Of a stretch of 64,000 nucleotides of DNA, positions 34,449 through 46,449 are shown in pieces. The notes under the pieces were generated by a model. It searched no databases. It saw only the letters and a list, made by a program, of their open reading frames with translations, and was not told the DNA's origin. Source of the stretch: an uncultured bacterium (GTDB taxonomy: Bacteria; Krumholzibacteriota; Krumholzibacteriia; Krumholzibacteriales; Krumholzibacteriaceae); contig CAWFAD010000011.1 in the NCBI GenBank assembly GCA_963813815.1, positions 160,001 to 224,000 on the forward strand, read 5' to 3'. The translations under genes were made by a program, and so were the position numbers. Each line of letters opens with the position of its first letter. The stretch's first letter is position 1.

Positions 34449-36926
34449 TTGATCCGAACGCTGCGCACAGCCGCCCTGGCATCGGCGCTTCTGCTCATCG
34501 TGCTCGAGTTCCTCGGCATGAGGGATTTCGCCCGTTCCCCGTATACCGGCATCCAGCACAACAACCTCATCGTTCGAGCGATCGATCTCGACGGTCCCAA
34601 CCGCGATCTCGGGCTGCGGCTCGGCGACAGGATCGTTCGCGTGAACGGGACGGCGGTCCGGAACGTCAATCACTACGCCTACCTCCTCGCATCGGCCCCT
34701 CCCCCCTCGTTTCTCGATCTGACGGTCGCCCGCGGGGATTCCCTATTCGACGTATCCGTTCGGAGCATGGCTCAACCTTCAGTGCGCGTCATGGGCAAGC
34801 TCTCGATCGTAATCGTCGCCTTCACGTTCGTTCTCATCGGTTTCGTGGTGCTCTTGAAGCGGCCCGACATCCTGGGCCTGCTCTTCACGGCGAACTGCTA
34901 CATACTCTCCTTCCTCGTCTCCGAGCGCCCCGTGACTGGTTCGCCGCTCCTGCAGATCATCGGCGAGCTCGGGTACGACTTTCTCTTCATATCCCTGCCC
35001 GCCTTCTTCCTCCACTTCTTCCTCCTCTTTCCGGGGCGCGAGATCGAGCGGGGAACGCGCCGCGCGCTGCTCGCGAGGTTTCTCTACGCACCGGTCGCGA
35101 TCCTCTCCCTTCTCACCCTCGTCGCGGCGCTGAGACAATACGACGCGCCGGGGGATGCCTCGCTCGGGGGGTTCATCAACGCGATCAACGCGCTCGCCGT
35201 GTGCGTCTGGCTCGGTTACATCACGGCGAGCCTCGCCCTTTTCGTCCGGACCTATTTTCTATCGGAGAGGGTGCAGCGGATCAAGTTCCGCGTCGTCCTG
35301 CTCGGGGTGGCGGCGGGAATCGTCCCCCTCACCGTGCTCATGCTCCTCAAGCAGTTTCAGCCGTCGATGGCCGTTCCCGCGCCTTATCTCTGGCCCCTCT
35401 TTCTCTCCTTCATGCCGATCTCCTTCGCCTACGCCATTCTCAAGCACCGGGCCTACGATCTCGGACTGCTGTACCGCACGATCTTCGTCTACGCGCTCCT
35501 TCTCGCGTTCGTCCTCGGGGTGTATTTCGTCTCGGTGAACGTGCTCGGCGAAGAAATGGACCGCAGGTTCGGCGTGCCGCGCTCCGCGGTCACGGTGTTC
35601 GTCATCGTGCTGCTCGCCGTCGCCGTCATGCCGGCGCGCGCCGTATTCCAGCGGCTCGCGGACCGTCTCACGGCGGGCCGGCGCGCCGCGGCCACGAACG
35701 AGATCGTCGCCTTTTCGCGGCGGATCCAGTTCCTCCTCTCTCTCGAGGAGGTATCGTCCTTCGTCGCCGAACGGATGGCCGATATCGCGCAAGCGGAGCA
35801 TGCGTACCTATTTCTCAGGGGAGAAACGGGGGACTACGCCCTTCGGGCGAGCGCTCCAGCCGGAATGCGCACACCCCTCACGTCCTTCCCGCCCGGCACC
35901 GCCCTCATCAAGCTCATGCAGCAGGAGCGGGTTCCCGTCATGCTCGAGTACTTCGACAGGCTCTGGCTCAAGAGCAATCTCGACCGGATATCGCGCGAGC
36001 TCGTTTCGCTCTCGCAGGCCTACGCGGCCGTGCCCCTTATCGAGCAGGATGAGCTTCTGGGATTCGTGCTCATGGGCCGAAAAAGCTCGGGAAGGCCCTA
36101 TACGGGAGCCGACGCGGAGCTTCTCGAGCTTCTGGCCGAACGGAGCGCCGTCTCCATTATGAACATCAGGCTCTGCGGCGACTCGATCATCAAGGATCGT
36201 CTCGAGAAGGAGCTCCGTCTCGCGAGCGAGATACAGACCCGCCTGCTGCCCTCGCGGTTCCCGTCGCTTCGCGGAGCCGAAATCGCGGCAAAGCTCGTGA
36301 CGAGCCACGAGGTCGGCGGCGATTTCTACGATTTCGTCGAGCCGGAGCCGGGGGTCGTGGGCATCGCCGTGGCGGACGTCTCGGGAAAGGGCATCCCGGC
36401 CGCGCTCCTTATGACGACGCTCCAGGCCTCATTCCGCGCCGAGGCCGTGAAGAATCCGGCCCCCGCGGTGATCGTTTCCGCCCTCAACGCCTCCCTCTAC
36501 GAGCGGAGCGACGACGAGAAGTTCGCCACCTTCTTCTACGCCCTCTACGATGACGCGACCGGCATCGTGCGCTTCTCCAACGCGGGCTCATCCCCCCCGT
36601 TCATCATATCGGGCGAGGGACGCATCTCGCGCCTGCACCGGGGAGGCGTCCTCATCGGCGTCGAGGCGCGGAGCGATTACAGCGAGGGCGTCGTAAAGCT
36701 CCGGCAGAACGATCTCATGCTGATCTTCACCGACGGCTGCACGGATCAGGAAAGCGCGGATGGGGAGCCGTTCGAGGAGAAGAGACTGGTTGATTTTATC
36801 AGAAATAACTTAACGCTCTCAGTCGATGCGATGATTGAGAAGTTATTTGCCACGCTCATTGCATTTGGGGAAAGGAATTTGAAAGATGATATGACTGTCG
36901 TTCTTCTTCGCAGAATCCTTCCTTGA
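34449..36926 (+). CDS. PDZ-multiTM-GAF-SpoIIE (PP2C) phosphatase
   Basis: GLRLGDRIVRVNG PDZ, many TMs, GAF, VGGDFYD, ADVSGKG, FTDG, DDMT. Confidence 0.9.
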   Translation: MIRTLRTAALASALLLIVLEFLGMRDFARSPYTGIQHNNLIVRAIDLDGPNRDLGLRLGDRIVRVNGTAVRNVNHYAYLLASAPPPSFLDLTVARGDSLFDVSVRSMAQPSVRVMGKLSIVIVAFTFVLIGFVVLLKRPDILGLLFTANCYILSFLVSERPVTGSPLLQIIGELGYDFLFISLPAFFLHFFLLFPGREIERGTRRALLARFLYAPVAILSLLTLVAALRQYDAPGDASLGGFINAINALAVCVWLGYITASLALFVRTYFLSERVQRIKFRVVLLGVAAGIVPLTVLMLLKQFQPSMAVPAPYLWPLFLSFMPISFAYAILKHRAYDLGLLYRTIFVYALLLAFVLGVYFVSVNVLGEEMDRRFGVPRSAVTVFVIVLLAVAVMPARAVFQRLADRLTAGRRAAATNEIVAFSRRIQFLLSLEEVSSFVAERMADIAQAEHAYLFLRGETGDYALRASAPAGMRTPLTSFPPGTALIKLMQQERVPVMLEYFDRLWLKSNLDRISRELVSLSQAYAAVPLIEQDELLGFVLMGRKSSGRPYTGADAELLELLAERSAVSIMNIRLCGDSIIKDRLEKELRLASEIQTRLLPSRFPSLRGAEIAAKLVTSHEVGGDFYDFVEPEPGVVGIAVADVSGKGIPAALLMTTLQASFRAEAVKNPAPAVIVSALNASLYERSDDEKFATFFYALYDDATGIVRFSNAGSSPPFIISGEGRISRLHRGGVLIGVEARSDYSEGVVKLRQNDLMLIFTDGCTDQESADGEPFEEKRLVDFIRNNLTLSVDAMIEKLFATLIAFGERNLKDDMTVVLLRRILP

Positions 36927-37003: not shown

Positions 37004-37019
37004 AGGCATGGCGTATGCT
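37004..37019 (+). promoter_or_regulatory. Candidate sigma54 promoter
   Basis: AGGCATGGCGTATGCT, GG-N10-GC spacing, about 12 nt before a hairpin-rich unit. Confidence 0.45.
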
Positions 37020-37100
37020 ATTTCAAGTGTTGCGAGACCCGCGATGCAGTTTCTCGCGGTTCTCGAGGGCAGTATGAGACCCGTTCAGGGGGTGGTTGTC

Positions 37101-37151
37101 ATGATGATTTCCTGGCTTTGGATCATTGACCTCCTGTGGTGGTTGCGCTGA
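37101..37151 (+). CDS. Candidate Trp-rich hydrophobic micropeptide MMISWLWIIDLLWWLR (in-frame ATGs also at 37074 and 37044)
   Basis: AGGGGGT RBS 7 nt upstream; followed by terminator-like hairpin. Confidence 0.4.
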   Translation: MMISWLWIIDLLWWLR

Positions 37152-37180
37152 CCCGGATAAACAGCGCTCTGTCCGCTCTA

Positions 37181-37240
37181 AAATAAATGTTCCCGTTGAT
37201 ACCAGTAATGCATCGGCGGGAACATTTATTTCCCCTTTTG
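37181..37240 (+). terminator. 20-bp hairpin terminator
   Basis: AAATAAATGTTCCCGTTGAT / ATCGGCGGGAACATTTATTT with two G-U pairs on +, then CCCCTTTT. Confidence 0.7.
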
Positions 37241-37347
37241 TCACGCTATTCCAATTCTTTAATGTTGTTTGTCACCATAGTTCTCTTAGCTCTTGCTAGG
37301 TAATAGCTTACGAATTGATAATATTTTAGTAATATTGCATTTTCCCC

Positions 37348-37375
37348 TTGACACTCCGCGGCGGTTCTCTATAAT
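37348..37375 (+). promoter_or_regulatory. Consensus sigma70 promoter
   Basis: TTGACA-N16-TATAAT with AT-rich upstream region. Confidence 0.85.
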
Positions 37376-37380
37376 TGGCG

Positions 37381-37579
37381 CAACGAGACAAAGAGCGTCT
37401 GACTATGCGGTCGTGATCCGTCTGCTCTCAAGCCTATCTTTGAAGCGAAGCGATCTTGCTGCTCAGGCCTCTGAAGGGTGCGAAGGACACGTCAGGCAAG
37501 GTAGTTGACTTCTCTGTCTCGTTGAAAAAAAAGGGAATTGTTCGGCGTTAGTCGTCGAGCAATTCCCTTCGTTATTTTT
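37381..37579 (+). ncRNA. Candidate structured small RNA of unknown family
   Basis: Starts 5 nt after TATAAT; CAACGAGACA pairs with TGTCTCGTTG (37515-37524); inner stems; terminator; no credible ORF. Confidence 0.7.
37531..37579 (+). terminator. Intrinsic terminator (possibly also serving the convergent TonB receptor gene)
   Basis: 17-bp stem AAGGGAATTGTTCGGCG / CGTCGAGCAATTCCCTT, A-run before and TTATTTTT after. Confidence 0.8.
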
Positions 37580-37612
37580 GAGCCACCGAGACGAGCTGCG
37601 CTGGATCTCTCT

Positions 37613-39685
37613 CTAGTATCTGTAAGAAACCCCCAACCAAAAGATTCTGCCCTGTGCCGGATATCCGCTCTCCGGTTCGTAGTTTTCATCGAGCAGGTTG
37701 CTCACGGTTAGATACGTCTCCCATTTTGACAGGAAGGGCTGCGAGAACTTGGCGCCGAAAACGACGTACCCCTCGTTCTTGACAACCTCCGTCTCCGGAT
37801 CGACCGCGGTCGGCAGCTGGCTGTAGGAGTCCCCGTATTTCGCCATGGTCAGCGCTATGCGCGAGCCGAGCGTCGGCGCCGTATATTCGAGCTTCGCATC
37901 AAGCTTGTATTCCGGCACATCGGTGACATTTTCCGTCGCCCGGCCGGGGCTGACGTCCTCGGCGTCGATGTACGTGAAACCGACGTTCATGGACAGGCAC
38001 TTCACGGGATCGATACCCGCGTTCACTTCAAGCCCCAGCATCTCGATCTCGGCGACGTTATAGTAGAGCTCGTCGGGTGAGGGGAAATCGCGGCTGATGC
38101 GATCCGATATGTCATGATAGAAAGGCGACACCTCGAAGCGCAGCATTCTGCTCACGACCATCGAAATGCCGGCCGTATAGTTTATGCTTCTCTCCGACTC
38201 GAGATCTATATTGCCTGATGATCCGAATAATTCGCTGAGCGTGGGGAAACGGTTCTTTTTGGCGACGGACGCGAAGAGCCTCGTCCTGTCGTTCAAGAGA
38301 AAGCTCGCCCCTATCATCGGATTGATCTCGGTCATTGTTTCAGGTGTCTCCGCGGCGACCTGTTGCACGAGATTTCCGTCATCGTCGGTTTCGTTCGTTT
38401 CCGCTTCCTTGACGTCGAACCAGTCGTAACCGACGCCCGCCACAACGGAGAGTTTCGAATCGAGAAGTATCAGCTCATCCTCGAGGCCCAGCGAACCCGT
38501 ATAGGACGCGCTCTTTTCAAAGGGCAGGTATGCGTCGTCGCGCTGCTCATGACTATCGAGCCTGAAGTTGACGGCGCCCCTGAGGACGTTCCAGCCGGAA
38601 AGGGTGTAATCACCGATCGCCATTCCGCCCGCGATGTAGTCCTGATACCGGCTCGTGGCCATCGCGGTATCGAAGCTCGCATCGGAGTAGGAAACATAGT
38701 CGTCAACGTGGTTATGATAAAAGAGCTTGCCCATCAGGCCGAATGCGCGGGCCAGCTTTTTCCTTCCGCTGAGGTCGGCGCCCCAGTTGTCGTATCTCTC
38801 TATTCTGTCGAACGAAGAAAAGGCGGGCCGGTCGGGAAATATCTTCACCAAATCGATGTTCGGCGGGTCGCCCTTTTCCGAGGCGGAATAGTGCAGGTTC
38901 AAGAAATACTCGGCGTCCTCCGAGGGCTCGAGACCGAGCTTCACATAGATATTATCGGCCCTGAAATCGGAATTGTTGCGCAGGCCGCCGTCTTCAATGA
39001 CGGTATCGACCCTCTCCGCCAATCTCCCCGCGCCCGTTTGCACCACGCCGATTCGGGGCGTGAAATCATCAGAGAGCCTCCATCCATCCCATTCCCGGTG
39101 CATGTAGGAAATCCAGTAGCTCAGACTCCCCTGCTTCATCCCATGCGACAGATAAGCCGATGCGGCGCCGTCCCGTCCGCCCTCGAGCTTTCCCGAAAAG
39201 GTCGCCCTATCGGCGGCCTTCTTCGTAATGATGTTTATGACCCCCGCTTCGGCGTTTGCGCCATAGAGCACCGATGCCGCTCCTTTGATCACGTCTATCC
39301 GCGCCACATTCTCTATCGAGAGCTGATTCATATCGAACTTGCCGTATTTCGTCTCGTAGTAGGGCACGCCGTCGATGAGAATGAGCGCCTTATCCTGAGA
39401 AAAGCCGTGTATCGAAATGCTGGCTTCCATCTTTCTTCCCATCGTCACCTGGACGCCGGGAATATATTGCAGGGCCTCCGCCACGGTGCGGCTGTTCGTC
39501 GCGGAAATATCCTCGGCCGTTATCTCAGTATTGATCGCGATGTTTTTGACGCCCGCCCTCTCGGCTAGAACCAATATCTCGCCGAGTGTGTATGTCTTAT
39601 AGTCTTCCTCGGCCCGCAGGGCGCCCGGAACAATGGACGATCCGAGGATCATCATCATGAATAGAGCTCGTGCCGGTTTCCTCAC
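37613..39685 (-). CDS. TonB-dependent receptor
   Basis: Signal peptide, TonB box-like EILVLAER, plug (LILIDG, RIDVIKGAASVLYG, GVINIITK), NLLDENY, terminal SYRY. Confidence 0.93.
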   Translation of the reverse strand: MRKPARALFMMMILGSSIVPGALRAEEDYKTYTLGEILVLAERAGVKNIAINTEITAEDISATNSRTVAEALQYIPGVQVTMGRKMEASISIHGFSQDKALILIDGVPYYETKYGKFDMNQLSIENVARIDVIKGAASVLYGANAEAGVINIITKKAADRATFSGKLEGGRDGAASAYLSHGMKQGSLSYWISYMHREWDGWRLSDDFTPRIGVVQTGAGRLAERVDTVIEDGGLRNNSDFRADNIYVKLGLEPSEDAEYFLNLHYSASEKGDPPNIDLVKIFPDRPAFSSFDRIERYDNWGADLSGRKKLARAFGLMGKLFYHNHVDDYVSYSDASFDTAMATSRYQDYIAGGMAIGDYTLSGWNVLRGAVNFRLDSHEQRDDAYLPFEKSASYTGSLGLEDELILLDSKLSVVAGVGYDWFDVKEAETNETDDDGNLVQQVAAETPETMTEINPMIGASFLLNDRTRLFASVAKKNRFPTLSELFGSSGNIDLESERSINYTAGISMVVSRMLRFEVSPFYHDISDRISRDFPSPDELYYNVAEIEMLGLEVNAGIDPVKCLSMNVGFTYIDAEDVSPGRATENVTDVPEYKLDAKLEYTAPTLGSRIALTMAKYGDSYSQLPTAVDPETEVVKNEGYVVFGAKFSQPFLSKWETYLTVSNLLDENYEPESGYPAQGRIFWLGVSYRY

Positions 39686-39707
39686 AGCTTGCGTACTCCT
39701 TTGCTCC

Positions 39708-40458
39708 TCAGCGCCCTGGACCCGAGGGCGCGGCGCCCCCGCACACGCCGCACCCCCGCCTTTTCTCGAACGTCACCGTCTCGAACGCCATCGTATCGGC
39801 GCGGAAGATCAGGAGAGCGTTCGCGTCGGGAATCTCGCCGGTCATCAGGTACCGCAGCGCCAGCGTCGTCTGAAGAGATCCGACCGCGGCCGCCAGCGCG
39901 CCGAACGCCGGCGTGGGCTCGGGGTTTCTCAGCTCCCCGGGCATGAGACAGGCGAGACAGGCGGTTTTCGGCGGATTGAAGAAGCTCAGCTGCCCCATCC
40001 ATTCTCGTATCGCCCCGTATACATAAGGGATATTGAGATCGAATGACGCCTTGTTCAGCTTCAAACGGTCGGCGTGATTGTCGAGGCCGTCGACTATCAG
40101 GTCGCATCCCGAGGCCAGCTCGCCGGCGTTGGTCTCGGTCAGCGCGTCCGAGTACGGCCTCAATTTCTATTTCTGGATTCTGCGCCGAGAGTCTCTTCGC
40201 CGCCAGAATCGCCTTGGGCTTGCCGATATCCGCATCCGTGTACAGGATCTGGCGATTCAGGTTGGACAGCTCGACCTTGTCGCCGTCGCAGATGCGCAGA
40301 TACCCGACTCCGGCCTCGGCGAGATAGGTCGCACTGACCCCGCCCAATCCTCCGACTCCGACCACCAGAACCCGCGCGCGCTTGAGCCTCTCCTGATCCC
40401 AGCCTTCGACCATGAGTTGACGTTGGTACCTCTCGATTTCGAGTTTCGATAGCGGCAT
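39708..40458 (-). pseudogene. ThiF/MoeB family adenylyltransferase, split by one frameshift near 40157-40160
   Basis: RYQRQ, GVGGLG, SNLNRQ in one frame; DLIVDGLDN, CLAC, CGVC in the next frame. Confidence 0.85.
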
Positions 40459-40471
40459 GGGAGAAATATCC

Positions 40472-40711
40472 TCAGCCGCCGGAAACGGGCGGCTGGAGGG
40501 TAATGGTCTGGCCGTCGGACGGCTTGTACGACAGGTCCTTCATCTTGCCGTCGACATGAATGAGCGCGACGAAGGCGGGATTGAGCGAAATGTGCTCGAG
40601 GATTTCACCGATCGTCTTCTCGCCCTCGATCTCGACCTTGCGGGTGTAGTGGTCGACGTCGGGTTTAATCATCGCGCGAAGCTGGCCGCCGGCTCTCAGG
40701 AAGATCGTCAT
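40472..40711 (-). CDS. MoaD/ThiS family sulfur carrier
   Basis: 79 aa ubiquitin-like protein ending PPVSGG. Confidence 0.9.
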   Translation of the reverse strand: MTIFLRAGGQLRAMIKPDVDHYTRKVEIEGEKTIGEILEHISLNPAFVALIHVDGKMKDLSYKPSDGQTITLQPPVSGG

Positions 40712-40729
40712 AGCTCATTCCATCCTCTG

Positions 40730-42669
40730 CTAGAACGCCTTCGGTTTGTACCGTTCGCCGCGGACCGCCGGAATGCCGTTCGGAAGCGGCTTTCCCAGGA
40801 GCCCGATCTTTTCGATATTATCCGCCGCGAAATCGAGCTTCAAATCGTGCAGCACCTCGCGGCTGGGATTGCCGTCGTTGTCCCATCCACGGCAGGCGTA
40901 GTATTCATCGAGCATCGTCTCGATCTGCTCCTTGGACAGCCCCTTGCCGGCGTTCGGGCCGGTCGGAATCTTGTCTTCCCAGGATCGCGCCGGCGGGTAA
41001 TCGAACGTGCGGCCGTTCGCCCGGTTGCGTTCGAGGTAATGGCATCGCACCAGATTCCAGATCTTCTCCGAGGTCTTGAACGCCTCGGCGGAATCGATAT
41101 TCCACCCGGTAATGTGGTTGAGCGACTCGACGATCTCCTCCGGCTCAATATCGAGCTCGCCCCAGAAGAGGCGGCAGATGCACCAGCAGTCGAAGAGCGG
41201 CCGGATATGCTGCAGGTAGACCACCACCTTGGCGCGTCCCTCGATCTTTTCGCGCCCCTCGGCCATGTCGACCGTGATGGTCCACGCGCGGTTGTGATGA
41301 GCGCCGATGTCGCAGGTCATGTACGAAAGCATCATCCCCGGAGCGTAGCGACCGTCGTACCCCGACATCTCCTGACCCTTGACCTGCATGGCGAATTTCT
41401 CGCTGCCCCGTCCGATTTTCTCCGCGGCCCGCTTGGTGCCGCCCGCGAAATACTCGCCGATCCCGCGGCGATGCACGATCATGTCGACGAAGTGTTCGGC
41501 GTCCTCCACCGAACCCCAGTTGAGCGTATGCCCTTCGAGATCGTCGGTGGTTATCAGCCCGCGCTGAAAGCACTCCATGCCGAACGCCACCACGCCGCCG
41601 CCCGACATGGTGTCCATGCCGACATTGTCCATCAGCCAGTTCAGATAGGCGACCTGGTTGATGTCGGTCATGCCGAGGTTCGAGCCGCACAGCGCGCCGG
41701 TCTCGTATTCGGGGCCCTCGAGATAGACCGTTTCTTTGCCCGGCAGGACCGCCTTGGTGTACTTGCCGCAGTTCATCCAGCATCCGAAACAGGCCTTGTG
41801 CGTGATGAGGCACTTCTCCACCAGCGCGTCGCCGTCGATGCCCTTGACATCCTCGAAATACGTGGTCTGGAAATTCCGCGTCGGAAGGACTGCATTTTTG
41901 TTGGACCAGTCGATGAAGAAGGCGGTGCCGTACTTCTGCCACGGAGCCATGTTGGGATGAGTCTGCGTCCGTTTGATGATGGCCGACACATGTTCGGTCA
42001 GCTTGTCGAGATCGTGCACCTTGATTCCCCTGGTGCCCCTGACGGCGATCGCCTTGAGCTTCTTCGAGCCCATGACCGCGCCCTGCCCGGTCCGTCCCGC
42101 CTGGCGGCCGTAATCGTGCGTGATACACGAGAAGCGAATGCCGTTCTCGCCGGCCGGTCCGATGGTGGCGATCTCGAAATCCTCGCCCAGGTCCTTTTTC
42201 ATCGCCGGTTCGCATTCGAGCGATCCCATGCCCCAGTATTTCGAGGCGTCGCGAAGCTCGACCTTGTCGTCGTCGATGAAGAGATAGATCGGCTTTGGGG
42301 AGATGCCGGACATAGATCACCATATCGTAGCCGGCGAACTTGAGGGTCGGGCCCAGATGGCCGCCCATATTGGAATCGCCGTGGCCGTTGGTCAGGGGGG
42401 AAATCGAGCCGAAGCCGACTTTGGCGCCCGCCGGGATAAAGCAGCCGCTCATGACTCCCGGCGCTCATGATGAAGAGATTCTCCGGCCCCAGCGGATCGG
42501 CGTCGCGGGGAACCTCGTCGTAGAGAATTTTGGCGACGACGCCTCGTCCTCCGAACCATTCGCGCATCAGCTTCTCATCGGTGGGATGTCTCTTGATCTC
42601 GCCGGTGGTGAGATTGATGCGCAGCGTCGTGCCGGCCAGTCCGTTGGAGCTCGCGGATCGTCTTGCCAT
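40730..42669 (-). pseudogene. Tungsten-type aldehyde:ferredoxin oxidoreductase family protein, frameshifts near 42458 and 42314
   Basis: LRINLT, GGRG, DPLGPEN (frame 1); SPLT, SNMGG (frame 2); GPAGE, GAVMGSKKLKAI, CFGC..NC, GPEYET (frame 3). Confidence 0.88.
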
Positions 42670-43091
42670 TACTTGCTCTCCTTTGCCGGTCTGGTATGAA
42701 CATGGTGATCGCGCCGGTGTTGCACAGATCGGTGCATTTGAAGCAGTTGTCGCAGATGATGACGTGATCGAGGTCGCGATGCTGAAATATCACGCCCGGC
42801 TTGCAGGCCGGAATACAGTCGCCGCAATTGGTGCATTTCTCGAAGTCCACGATATAGGCGCCGTCGTCGCGACGGTAGATCGCACCCTCCGGGCAGACCT
42901 CCATGCACTTGCCGCACTGCGTGCAGACCTTCGGCTTGTATACCCCCGGCTGCGGGAAAAGTGCCTCGATTCTCAAGGCGGCCTTTTTGGGATTGATTTC
43001 GTCGTAATGGGCTGATTGCGCAGATTTGCAGGCACAGGCGGCACCCGCTGCACTTGCCCGACGTTACTTTGATTCTCTTTCGTTCCATCAT
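42669..43091 (-). pseudogene. 4Fe-4S dicluster ferredoxin subunit, frameshifted near 43010 and probably near 42690
   Basis: CSGCRLC..IC in one frame; CTQCGKCMEVCP, CTNCGDCIPAC, CDNCFKC in the next. Confidence 0.8.
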
Positions 43092-43125
43092 GCTCTCGAA
43101 TGCGCGCGAGCCCGGAGTCCGCGGC

Positions 43126-43708
43126 TCACGCCGGCTTGCGCAGCGGGATAAGGGGCCGGATGGCGTTACCGAGATAATATCCGAGATGTATCGTCACCAT
43201 CGAGATGAGCGACGCGGCGACCGCGTCGGTGAGAAGGTACGATCGAATTTCCGCCCAACCGTCCGTGCCCCAGGTTCCGTCGCGGAGAACGAACGCGGCC
43301 AGAATCGCGAAGATCGCATACGATACGTAGACGATGACCGGCGCGGCTAGGGTCCTCTGCAACGCGCTGCAATCAAGGCGTCCTTTGAACGTCGAGTAGG
43401 CGATATCGAAAACGATCCCGTTGATCATCACCGCGGCGACCTGGCAGGGAAAGAAATTGTCTGGAGGCGGTCTTGAACAGGCCGGCGATGATCGCCATGA
43501 TGACGACCGAGCCGGGGAAATGGACCACGCGCTTGGATGCGTAAAGGATAATGATGCCGAGCCCGTAGAGCAGGGCCGATTTGTGCTCCACCCCCACGGC
43601 GCGCAAAGCGTCCCGTCCGAAAAGCTCCAGCATGCCGAATACCGCCCCGAACATGAGCACGAACAGGAGCTTCCTCAAGGCCTGCCGCGGCGCCTCGAGC
43701 GCCCGCAT
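43126..43708 (-). pseudogene. Multi-TM membrane protein resembling ECF S-components, frameshift near 43462
   Basis: FGAVFGMLE...PGSVVIMAIIAGLFK continues as NFFPCQVAAVMINGIVFD in another frame; about 195 aa, 5-6 TMs. Confidence 0.55.
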
Positions 43709-43843
43709 CTTTATTGTCCGGCACTCGCCACCTCCGAAAATCGACCGTCAGAGCTCAAGCCAATTGTCGCAATAATAGCACAATCTCCCTTTGCGTAAAG
43801 AAAAATTAAGCTATGTCTTACAAGGGGATCAGCCGGATCGATA

Positions 43844-46135
43844 TCAGCGAAGCAAAATCATTTTCTTCGCGAACGTCCGTTTGCCGACGGTGAGCCGGTA
43901 GAAATAAACCCCCGACGACGCCGTCCTCCCGTCGCCGTCCCGACCGTCCCACTCGATCAGGTGATGCCCCGCGCCAACCGGCTCGTCGACGAGGCGAGCC
44001 ACGAGACGCCCCCCGATGTCGTACACATCAAGGCGCACATGATCGCGAGCCTCGATAGCAAATCCGATCGAAGTCCGGGGATTGAACGGGTTCGGAACGT
44101 TTTGATCGAGCGCGAGCCGCGCGGCGAGGGTTCGCACCGTCATCTCGGTCGAGCGGATCTCCCGCCCGTCCGACGTCACGGCCGCGATGACGTAGAGGTA
44201 GTCCCGCCCGGGCTCGATCGAGCGGTCGTCGTAGCTTCGCGCCTGCGGAAGAAGGAGGACGGATGTGATGCACGAAAATTCTTCCCCGGGCGTCGAGCGA
44301 TAAATCCGAAAACCGTCGAGCGCCTCGTCCGCGAACGTCTCCCAGCGAAGCGCCACGACGCCATCCATCGCATCCGCCGCGACCGTGGCGAAGGCGACGG
44401 CAACGGGAATGTACTCTCCGAATTGCAGACCGAGACTGCTCCCGTTCCCCGCGGACAAACCGACGAAGTCCTCATTCGGCACGGAAACTGCGAGCTCGCC
44501 GGATGCGCTCCTTCCCCATGCCACGATGGTGCCGTCAGCTTTAAGACCGATACTGTGGTACGATCCCGCGGAGATTGCGGCGAAATTATTATTCGGCCAA
44601 GGAACGCTGCATTGACCCACGGCATTATCGCCCCATGCCACGATTGTGCCATCACGCTTGAGCCCGAGGCTATGATTCGCCCCGCCAGAAACGGAAACAA
44701 AATTCGCGTTCGGACCGGGAACGTCGCACTGACCGTAATCGTTGCGCCCCCAAGCCGCGATGGTGCCGCCACTCCTCAAGCCCAGGCTGTGAGAGAGGCC
44801 CGCGGAAATCGCCACGAAACCCTCGTTCGGCAACGGAATTGTGCACTGACCATCGTAATTCAATCCCCAGGCCACAATCGTGCCATCGGACTTTAAGCCC
44901 AAGCAGTGATAGACGCCCGCGCCAACCGCCACGAAACCCTCGTTCGGCAACGGGACCTCGCACTGATGATAGTAACTATTCCCCCATACCCGAATTTTGC
45001 CGTCAGACCCAAGACCCATGCTGATTTCCGATCCGCAGTCAACCGCGACGTACCACGCCGTCCCGCCGCTCAGCGGCCAAGGGACGTTGCATTCGCCATT
45101 GGGATTGTCGCCCCAGGCGATGAGCCTGCCGTCGTACTTGAGACCCAAAAAGTGGTAAGTCCCGCACGCAACCGCTCTGAAACCCTCGTTCGGCGCGGGA
45201 ACATTGCACTGACCATAGTCATTGAGCCCCCAGCACACGACGGAGCCGCTCGATTTGAGTCCGAGGCAATGAGCATCTCCTCCTGAGATCGCGATGAAAT
45301 TCTCATTCGGCTCAGGAACGCTGCACTGGCCGTAGGCATTGTAGCCCCAGGCCACAATTACGCCGTCGGACCTTAAGGCCATGCAGTGAAGGGCGCCCGC
45401 GGAAATCGCCACGAATTTCTCGTTCGGCGCGGGAACGTCGCACTCGCCGTAAGTGTTGCTTCCCCACACCACAATCGTCCCATCCGACTTGAGACCCATG
45501 CTGAAATGTCCGCCCGCGGCAATCGCTACGAAATTCTCGTTCGGCAACGGGACCGTGCATTGACCATAATAAGTTTCTCCCCACGCCACAATCGTCCCAT
45601 CCGACTTGAGACCAAGGCTGTGCCACGATCCCCCGTCAATCGCTACAAAATCCTCGTTCGGCAACGGGGCCGTGCATTGACCATAATAATTTTCTCCCCA
45701 TCCCACAATCGTCCCATCCGACTTGAGACCCAGGCTGTGAAAAAAGCCCGTAGAAACCGCAACAAAATTCTCGTTCGGCGCAGGAACGTCGCACTGGCCG
45801 TAATAGTTGCTTCCCCACGCCACAATCGTCCCATCCAACTTGAGACCCAGATTGTGCCTACTGCCCGCGGCGATCGTCGCAAAATCTTCGCCCGGCAACG
45901 GGGCGGTGCATAAGCTGCGCATTCCCCACCCCACAAGCGATCCGTCGGATTTGAAACAGATGCTGTGAGATCCGCCGGCGGCGATCGCCGTTATCCCTTC
46001 GAGAGCCGATTGCTCCACCGCAATACGACGACCCCAGCCGACGATACCCCCTCCGACCTGAGCGAATGCGCCGCCGATGCCGAGCATGGAAACCGAGACA
46101 ACGACCAAGCCCAAGAAAACGCATTTCGATCTCAT
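43844..46135 (-). CDS. Secreted RCC1/BLIP-II-like beta-propeller repeat protein with C-terminal FlgD/T9SS-like domain
   Basis: Signal peptide; 14 repeats of AG..HSLGLKSDGTIVAWG.N.YGQC; LDQNVPNPFNP...SGVYFYRL...KKMILLR. Confidence 0.9.
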   Translation of the reverse strand: MRSKCVFLGLVVVSVSMLGIGGAFAQVGGGIVGWGRRIAVEQSALEGITAIAAGGSHSICFKSDGSLVGWGMRSLCTAPLPGEDFATIAAGSRHNLGLKLDGTIVAWGSNYYGQCDVPAPNENFVAVSTGFFHSLGLKSDGTIVGWGENYYGQCTAPLPNEDFVAIDGGSWHSLGLKSDGTIVAWGETYYGQCTVPLPNENFVAIAAGGHFSMGLKSDGTIVVWGSNTYGECDVPAPNEKFVAISAGALHCMALRSDGVIVAWGYNAYGQCSVPEPNENFIAISGGDAHCLGLKSSGSVVCWGLNDYGQCNVPAPNEGFRAVACGTYHFLGLKYDGRLIAWGDNPNGECNVPWPLSGGTAWYVAVDCGSEISMGLGSDGKIRVWGNSYYHQCEVPLPNEGFVAVGAGVYHCLGLKSDGTIVAWGLNYDGQCTIPLPNEGFVAISAGLSHSLGLRSGGTIAAWGRNDYGQCDVPGPNANFVSVSGGANHSLGLKRDGTIVAWGDNAVGQCSVPWPNNNFAAISAGSYHSIGLKADGTIVAWGRSASGELAVSVPNEDFVGLSAGNGSSLGLQFGEYIPVAVAFATVAADAMDGVVALRWETFADEALDGFRIYRSTPGEEFSCITSVLLLPQARSYDDRSIEPGRDYLYVIAAVTSDGREIRSTEMTVRTLAARLALDQNVPNPFNPRTSIGFAIEARDHVRLDVYDIGGRLVARLVDEPVGAGHHLIEWDGRDGDGRTASSGVYFYRLTVGKRTFAKKMILLR
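44420..45994 (-). repeat. Intragenic tandem 117-bp (39-aa) repeats
   Basis: ACAATCGTCCCATCC recurs at 45471, 45588, 45705 and 45822 (period 117). Confidence 0.9.
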
Positions 46136-46256
46136 CTTTACCACCTCTTTGTCCCCATCGCCGCCGAATGGCTGCAAATCAGGGTCGCGCCGGCGCAAAA
46201 CGGCCGAAGCGAAACGTCTCCCTCGCAATAATTATTTGATTGAGCAACCCGTAGTT

Positions 46257-46285
46257 AGTTTATCAGATTCGGCGCAGATTATCAA
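46257..46285 (-). promoter_or_regulatory. Sigma70-type promoter of RCC1-repeat gene
   Basis: TTGATA-N17-TAAACT with TG extended -10 on minus strand. Confidence 0.55.
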
Positions 46286-46372
46286 TCTATAACGCCGCAT
46301 GAGAAGGACGACGCCAATAGCACTCCGAAGACGAGGTGGCCCCCGCCAAAGACGGGCAAGCGATTGAAAAAA

Positions 46373-46449
46373 TGGTGCCCCCGAGACGATTCGAACGTCC
46401 GACAAACGGTTTAGGAAACCGCTGCTCTATCCATCTGAGCTACGGGGGC
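46373..46449 (-). tRNA. tRNA-Arg(CCT)
   Basis: GCCCCCGTAGCTCAG...GCGGT-TTCCTAA-ACCGT...GTTCGAATC...CGGGGGCACCA. Confidence 0.96.

Follow-up and report, generated by a model that had tools for sequence, protein, structure and literature searches.

The locus described here lies in a 64,000-nt stretch of DNA (the window) from an uncultured member of the Krumholzibacteriaceae, and occupies a 686-nt gap between a plus-strand gene for a PDZ-GAF-SpoIIE protein (34449-36926) and a minus-strand gene for a TonB-dependent receptor (37613-39685). A sequence-only reading of this gap had described a hairpin-rich transcript encoding a Trp-rich hydrophobic micropeptide with a sequestered ribosome-binding site (RBS). 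The features of the locus are as follows:

34449-36926, plus strand: partner sensor gene, encoding 825 aa arranged as TM1, PDZ, a 7TM bundle, two further helices, GAF, and SpoIIE/PP2C (RsbU-like).
37005-37018, plus strand: predicted sigma-54-type -24/-12 box, GG-N10-GC, with GG at 37005-6 and GC at 37017-8.
37033-37065, plus strand: 5′ leader hairpin of 11 pairs and one mismatch (-17.0 kcal/mol), present only in the source genome and its closest relatives.
37086-37094, plus strand: Shine-Dalgarno (SD) sequence, GGGGGTG or GGAGGTG, present in 20/20 loci and most other carriers.
37101-37151, plus strand: micropeptide ORF, MMISWLWIIDLLWWLR followed by a stop, 16 aa here and 15 aa in most family relatives.
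37122-37151, plus strand: conserved C-terminal core, [ILV]-D-[LI]-[FLW]-W-W-L-[RK] plus 0-2 residues and the stop, presumed to be the active module.
37129-37136, plus strand: ACCTCCTG, able to pair with the RBS CAGGGGGT (37086-37093), a genus-level feature.
37181-37231, plus strand: presumed intrinsic terminator recognized by folding, a 20-bp hairpin A/T-rich on both flanks, with arms conserved family-wide.
37348-37569, plus strand: separate noncoding RNA (ncRNA) gene, with a sigma-70 promoter (37348-37375), an RNA of approximately 37381-37524, and a terminator (37531-37569).

The intergenic region was found in 27 of 61 genomes by nucleotide search, and a set of 20 loci was defined as those returned by nucleotide similarity, the peptide having played no part in their selection. 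All 20 keep a sigma-54-type box, an SD sequence, an ORF ending IIDL(L/F/W)WWLR-stop, and the terminator. The box takes the form GGCA(C/T)-N5-ATGC and lies 99-129 nt upstream of the core in every one of them, and RpoN is encoded in the source genome. The GG-N10-GC element singled out in the sequence-only reading is where it was stated to be. The 20-bp terminator stem was likewise recovered where it had been proposed, and the 226-nt region, when its fold was checked as had been suggested, folded more strongly than shuffled versions of itself (z -3.36; 1/200 shuffles as good). The 5′ hairpin is present with its 11 pairs, but its sequence is not kept among relatives, nor is that of the leader as a whole or of the hairpin that follows the stop. 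In several families the terminator arms hold GTTCCC...GGGAAC, which is unusual for a plain terminator. Also, in loci of families f4, f7, and f8 a mini-ORF of free sequence, mostly 4-6 codons and most commonly exactly 5, stands directly before the terminator, either in overlap with the stop codon of the peptide (ATGA) or led by an SD of its own (e.g., L161-L165, L170, L171, L176, L179, L181, and L183); none was seen in the source window.

Evidence that the ORF is translated comes from the way in which it changes. Pairwise comparison of the last 10 codons in the 20 loci, which are kin and do not represent independent events, gave 745 synonymous vs 92 non-synonymous differences, with third positions taking 761 of 1019 base changes. 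The frame is intact in all 20, which bears out the expectation of codon-level conservation, and the relatives end it with different stop codons (TGA, TAG, or TAA). The D, W, and W of the core are invariant in 88 aligned peptides, themselves gathered using the same motif, and of 93 database proteins with the core, 89 terminate 2-4 residues beyond the WW. The source genome holds a single copy of the motif. The ORF had also been read as extendable in frame to 25 or 35 aa; these extensions, and one of 47 aa, were rejected because several relatives, L002, L005, and L012 among them, carry stop codons within the extended frame, which leaves an SD-led frame of 15-17 aa as the conserved one. Four DNA-derived forms of the peptide had no Pfam match at E ≤ 1, NCBIfam contained no matching family, and the ESM Atlas gave nothing usable; a tblastn search of annotated phages and plasmids with a 22-aa form returned one chance match inside a primase and otherwise none. 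Judged by these sequence comparisons, the micropeptide ORF, hydrophobic and Trp-rich as first described and bounded by its own sigma-54-type promoter and terminator, is a genuine protein-coding gene.

The peptide is distributed far beyond the source genus. A strict pattern matched 35 of 208 Krumholzibacteriota genomes, all in the order of the source organism, and the relaxed core pattern D[LI][FL]WWL[RK] near a stop matched 180 of the 208, including 116 of 125 high-quality ones; a reversed-pattern control matched approximately 29 of 208, and a few of the 180 matches are chance-only. Linkage was assessed from the other side at 38 loci in other families holding an orthologue of the sensor, from which downstream DNA was taken without prior search for the peptide, except for three that came from the pattern search. 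Downstream DNA was available for 36 of the 38, of which 35 carried the WW form and 1 a WF form. At all 36 the peptide comes 60-410 nt after the sensor orthologue, and six further loci (6/6) bring the count to 42/42. Behind a PDZ-TM-PP2C paralogue of the sensor the peptide was found at 0/12 loci, and a gene for a TPR protein follows there instead. The paralogue, of PDZ-TM-GAF-PP2C layout, occurs in f4 and f8 (L247-L258), and the TPR protein whose gene consistently comes next is membrane-anchored. In 3 of the 20 loci (L018-L020) the block of peptide gene and adjoining ncRNA has the opposite orientation with respect to the sensor gene, which speaks against a strict operon.

Absences follow the same pairing. 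In family f5, no motif match and no full-length sensor were found in any of seven genomes, three of which are 97-100% complete; a WF-tolerant pattern gave chance matches only in the 5 genomes tested with it, and both f5 genomes tested retain the neighbouring TPR gene. The co-absence of peptide and sensor in f5 is one evolutionary event. A search for the sensor in 27 of the 28 motif-negative genomes and in 3 chance-only genomes gave an orthologue-level match in six: at the locus in G155 a YWW variant of the peptide is present, in G001 and G192 the orthologue runs to the contig edge, and in G010, G013, and G194 the frames are truncated. G021 and G025 lack the neighbour of the sensor as well, and so look like assembly gaps. 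A second phylum shows the pairing as well: of its 18 genomes, 12 have a real ORF of 23-24 aa, and the sensor is next to it in every case for which upstream DNA exists. A second ORF of 32 aa follows the peptide in this phylum (L143-L145, L279, L280, and L284), with a signal-peptide-like N-terminus, a C-terminal (C/S)SW(F/Y)xxxFRx(V/I), and a hydrophobic end that make it a candidate PDZ ligand. Chromosomal forms of the micropeptide vary in length from 11 to 24 aa, and some N-termini in f6 are polar.

Promoters vary more than the pair that they serve. Sigma-54-like boxes lie upstream of the ORF in f1, f3, f6, f7, and some f9 loci, and TAAA/TCAAG-N16-CCGAT boxes, which from their general consensus we take to be sigma-28-like, in many f4 loci and in the second phylum. 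FliA/WhiG scored over the cut-off in 3/3 genomes of lineages with sigma-28-like boxes and in 0/2 of lineages with sigma-54 boxes only; STAS proteins were present in 5/5 genomes examined. Promoter type tracks sigma content while the peptide-sensor pair persists. As far as gene order and sequence can tell, the micropeptide accompanies one sensor gene almost universally and at a single locus, in a linkage that is specific and ancient.

The sensor matches SpoIIE, GAF, and PDZ in Pfam, and HisKA_7TM was matched in 6 of 35 orthologues. An AlphaFold2 model of residues 1-430 (pLDDT 89) comprises TM1, the PDZ domain, a seven-helix bundle, and two more helices. The PDZ domain is closest in fold to DegS/HtrA, with those of DegS and AlgW among the nearest folds. 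A fold search with the membrane bundle returned GPCR-like 7TM matches (Z about 10, rmsd 4.4-6.8); their quality is within the range of helical bundles, and no relationship to GPCRs is claimed. Most orthologues (28-30 of 35) retain acidic residues near positions 159, 173, and 177; topology puts these on the outer side, where they are a possible site for the basic tail of the peptide. Complex prediction with sensor residues 1-430 and a 30-residue in-frame form of the peptide, longer than the conserved frame, gave a score of 0.14 (mark, 0.32), which is counted neither for nor against an interaction.

Copies of the micropeptide also occur in phages. Three relaxed scans of viral contigs returned 22, 18, and 18 loci, with 3 and 3 in codon-reversed controls for the first two. 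Among the sites, 27 on 24 viral contigs are short SD-led ORFs that end at the motif and four additional ones are longer SD-led precursors, the remaining sites reported by the scans being dropped as chance or doubtful; in a strict scan, 2 of 5 matches were real. In all, approximately 30 viral contigs and one prophage carry copies, the latter being a second copy of the peptide on a contig of G171 with terminase and portal genes. Viral copies lie beside genes for terminases, portals, methyltransferases, Gam, and an integrase, three contigs hold tandem copies, and the sensor was found near the peptide at 0/39 viral loci. The tails of viral peptides correspond to those of host families: -LRD is the form seen in f7, -LRRR that of f6, and -LRK that of f4/f8, with -LRR and -LR matching host-family tails too. 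Leaders resembling signal peptides, of basic-hydrophobic-AxA type by a crude rule rather than a trained predictor, precede the core in L220, P0072, P0098, P0123, and P0130, with L192 similar (P-numbered proteins are unplaced database entries, not assigned to viruses); by that same rule, such leaders are seen in some viral or unplaced forms only. In viral L198, a 40-aa polar linker precedes the core. Since the viral core stays C-terminal behind unrelated leaders and linkers, it appears to be a portable C-terminal module, and the signal-peptide-like leaders and polar linker suggest that this module is a ligand working from outside.

Outside these phyla and their viruses the peptide is sporadic. 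In Patescibacteria, the strict pattern was found in 2 of 301 genomes of the class, both in one family, and among 251 archaeal genomes there was 1 real ORF, on an archaeal-binned contig; wide spread in epibionts was rejected on these counts. In the Patescibacteria, dinB and ssb flank the peptide, which is preceded by two copies of a structured repeat of approximately 110 nt (L024, L033, L135, L166, and L167) and is near genes resembling those for secreted proteins of the Krumholzibacteriota type, possibly having been transferred from a host. Sensor-like matches in these genomes were rejected as partners; they are TM-GAF-kinase proteins 11-13 kb away without a PDZ or PP2C match.

The ncRNA gene downstream of the peptide encodes a rod-like RNA of approximately 145 nt that is highly conserved in the family, and its sigma-70 promoter is a perfect match (12 of 12). 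A search of the region against Rfam gave nothing at the gathering score, with only weak sub-threshold hairpin matches and the ncRNA unmatched. Loci of f2, f6, f7, and f9 were found to have the ncRNA after the peptide, against 0/13 f4, 0/4 f8, 0/3 second-phylum, and 0/42 viral or other motif sites. The linkage is confined to part of the phylum, and the ncRNA probably does not belong to the peptide circuit. The ncRNA travels with the peptide gene in the inverted blocks of L018-L020. The spacer between the two (37238-37350) holds the conserved motifs TTTGTCA-N9-TTAA and TGATAA, whose distance from the ncRNA promoter is constant in most members of the family; they may be a binding site for a regulator or a sigma-54 enhancer placed downstream. 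Relatives have a tRNA gene on the minus strand directly after the ncRNA. In the source window, an island has been inserted (within 37575-46449) between a degenerate tRNA 3′ end (approximately 37578-37600) and an intact tRNA-Arg(CCT) (46373-46449). It holds genes for the TonB receptor, ThiF, and aldehyde ferredoxin oxidoreductase, and its ThiF, aldehyde ferredoxin oxidoreductase, and ferredoxin genes appear to be split over overlapping frames (39682-43091), through sequencing indels or decay. The window also contains a 6S RNA at 1550-1736.

The sequence-only reading compared the locus with type I toxin loci, and a type I toxin silenced by RBS sequestration together with an antisense RNA has to be weighed. 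The membrane toxins Ibs, Ldr/Fst, and AapA1 are small and hydrophobic, with a basic C-end and a strong SD (PMC8309996, partial text), and the micropeptide, hydrophobic, well below 60 aa (16 aa), basic at its C-end, and led by a strong SD, resembles them; phage carriage would also suit a toxin. As for sequestration, the opening energy of the RBS (13.2 kcal/mol) is greater than at 14 of the 15 window start sites used as controls, occlusion often exceeds that of recoded controls within the source genus, and the proposed pairing partner ACCTCCTG is present in 11/11 genus members. The pairing itself is thus possible and its element invariant in the genus, but the element is absent from 9/9 other loci, the helix is the minimum-free-energy structure in a shorter context and has a pairing probability of approximately 0.19 in the full predicted transcript, and phylum-wide there is no excess, occlusion being above the mean of codon-matched recodings at 27 of 46 loci and in the top tenth at 7 of 46. 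On the antitoxin side, a sigma-70-like antisense promoter was found in none of 19 spacers scored, a duplex between the neighbouring ncRNA and the mRNA was stronger than the 5% tail of shuffles at just 4 of 19 loci with no consistent pairing, and TTTGTCA was rejected as an antisense -35, there being no -10 at the right spacing. Unlike the known toxins, moreover, the peptide has no antitoxin that we could find, is invariant at the level of single residues, and is a single-copy partner of one sensor gene, fixed in position and lost together with it, which makes it a poor fit to a type I toxin. With sequestration a genus-level feature and an antitoxin RNA not found, both the toxin and a noncoding sRNA acting as an anti-SD are unlikely; we regard the toxin as improbable. 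For the sRNA, in which the ORF would be incidental, the invariance of ACCTCCTG in the genus can be cited, but ACCTCC is missing outside the genus, and the bias toward synonymous change, the three stop codons, and the in-frame changes in length refute it, so that we give it next to no credence. Known leader and arrest peptides such as TrpL and TnaC raise the further idea of a cis-acting Trp-sensing leader or ribosome-arrest peptide. Tandem Trp codons close to the stop, a constant C-end after a variable N-end, a hairpin behind, and the mini-ORFs before the terminator in f4, f7, and f8 would fit such a role, but the transcript ends in a terminator followed by an independently promoted ncRNA or a convergent gene, leaving attenuation without a downstream target, and the phage contexts are unrelated to one another; it seems a shade less probable even than the toxin.

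The micropeptide is therefore probably a signal or regulator for the adjacent sensor rather than a toxin, and judging from genomic context we consider it fairly likely that it acts in trans. The reading that we prefer is of a trans-acting peptide ligand of a ComP-like sensor, working on the periplasmic side; it is the likeliest single account, at somewhat less than even odds. The ORF would encode a diffusible or membrane-tethered ligand of the sensor phosphatase, whose hydrophobic N-terminus may carry it into or across the inner membrane and whose module (I)D(L/I)(F/L)WWL(R/K)(R/K) would engage the sensor from the periplasm, at the PDZ domain or else at the outer 7TM pocket with its conserved acidic residues near 159, 173, and 177. 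Engagement would alter the activity of the PP2C domain toward a STAS anti-anti-sigma protein, and with it the state of an alternative-sigma programme. The circuit would be a feedback loop, probable given the sigma-54- or sigma-28-type promoters of the peptide gene, in quorum-like or envelope-state signalling; phages and the two Patescibacteria, carrying the module without the sensor, would presumably push or block the switch. The linkage at 42/42 loci as against 0/12 behind the paralogue, the f5 co-absence, and the second-phylum pairing support a sensor ligand, as do the ComP-like layout of the sensor, the portable viral core, the viral tails that match host families, the prophage copy, and the agreement of promoter type with sigma content. 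Several points count against it. The chromosomal forms have no basic n-region or cleavage site by the crude rule used here, and under the positive-inside rule a basic C-terminus normally predicts a C-end facing the cytoplasm. Typical PDZ ligands end in hydrophobic residues, and R, K, D, or G tails are not typical. Two phyla share an almost unchanged core, in which the peptide differs from kin-specific pheromones; no gene for an exporter, protease, or prenyltransferase was seen adjoining the peptide locus, and the three inverted loci also weigh against this reading.

A rival is a small inner-membrane protein, N-end out and basic C-end in, that binds the transmembrane helices of the sensor as a feedback regulator of the MgrB/SafA type, is never exported, and carries no signal between cells. 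All linkage and co-absence data fit it, the forms of 20-24 aa resemble one TM helix with an acidic N-end, an interfacial Trp pair, and a basic C-end, and an invariant core suits a fixed binding site. On the other hand, forms of 11-16 aa are too short to span the membrane, some f6 N-termini are polar, and viral cores stand behind signal-peptide-like leaders or polar linkers. We consider it a rather unlikely explanation, and action on the periplasmic side is more likely than action within the membrane. The "small membrane regulator" of the sequence-only reading came close to the preferred account. Less likely again is an effector of the sensor's regulon that acts on some other conserved target, such as a membrane protease, the translocon, or a respiratory complex, and is adjacent through shared regulation. 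The peptide's own promoter and terminator, the tolerance of inversion in three loci, and the sensor-less copies in phages, two Patescibacteria, and one archaeal-binned contig are compatible with it, but adjacency persists across two phyla and two promoter types and is specific to one of two paralogues, and one archaeal copy in 251 genomes gives no sign of a universal target.

Comparison with known systems places the preferred sensor-ligand reading among several precedents. MgrB and SafA, which act with PhoQ, are tiny hydrophobic membrane regulators of sensors, and the micropeptide resembles them as a tiny hydrophobic protein tied to one membrane sensor, with feedback likely; unlike theirs, its target would be a PP2C protein, phages copy it, and it has no Pfam or NCBIfam family match. 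The streptococcal ComS/XIP and SHP peptides derive from short hydrophobic precursors and are re-imported to bind cytoplasmic Rgg in monoderms. They share with the micropeptide an Asp followed by a C-terminal WW-containing core, a resemblance only, and differ in their re-import, Rgg binding, and monoderm hosts, no such gene having been seen here. In Bacillus, ComP is predicted to have a TM1-PDZ-multi-TM layout, and its PDZ domain has been proposed to bind ComX (PMC9620489, partial text). The present sensor is similar in layout, with TM1, an extracellular PDZ, and a multi-TM bundle, and a gene for a short Trp-containing peptide is adjacent. Unlike ComQXPA, its output is GAF-PP2C rather than a histidine kinase, no response regulator was seen, the host is a diderm, the precursor is 11-24 aa, and the core is invariant; the four forms of the peptide compared with Pfam did not match the ComX family. 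No comQ-like gene lies at the locus. Polyprenyl-synthase genes number 2 elsewhere in each of 3 peptide-bearing genomes and 2-3 in the two f5 genomes, and ComQ-type prenylation was rejected for want of a candidate gene at the locus.

In Pseudomonas, the small exported proteins MucE and DimA act through an aromatic C-terminal motif on the PDZ-bearing AlgW, in a MucE/DimA-AlgW-MucA-AlgU pathway that leads to an alternative sigma factor and includes positive feedback (PMC3819740; bioRxiv 2025.04.28.651061; both partial text). Both cases pair a small protein with a PDZ-bearing inner-membrane sensor, and the micropeptide has aromatic residues near its C-end, but the linked PDZ protein here is a phosphatase, not an HtrA protease, and the peptide is far shorter and ends in WWL, R/K, and 0-2 residues rather than WVF/WTF. 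By analogy, the peptide-sensor pair would work like ComX-ComP or MucE/DimA-AlgW while belonging to neither. For phages that supply a peptide open to reading by their hosts, phiCDHM1, which carries agrBDC, is a precedent and arbitrium a further comparison (PMC7790227, partial text); unlike these, the phages here hold the peptide only, in host-lineage flavours and with rebuilt leaders. More speculatively, and in our view doubtfully, the sequences would allow a diderm pheromone: a PDZ-7TM receptor, coupled to a PP2C partner-switch rather than to a kinase, would read a signal of 8-9 residues, D(L/I)FWWL(R/K)(R/K), which dozens of phages and some Patescibacteria would have captured independently and, with Sec-type leaders, would use to set the alternative-sigma state of the host population.

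No description of the peptide or of the peptide-sensor pair was found in the literature covered, mostly openly readable papers, and supplements of small-protein catalogues may hold unnamed members; the accessible part of a review of phage small proteins contains nothing resembling the family (PMC11323111). The micropeptides form a new family, apparently undescribed, and a core gene of the phylum so short that standard gene callers either lengthen it or pass over it. For the orphan PDZ/7TM membrane sensors, a large class, the micropeptide provides a candidate ligand, and it may be a case of a peptide feeding into an RsbU-type phosphatase. Repeated capture by phages in host-lineage flavour marks the switch as worth manipulating, and the 9-residue marker could assign hosts to unplaced viral contigs.
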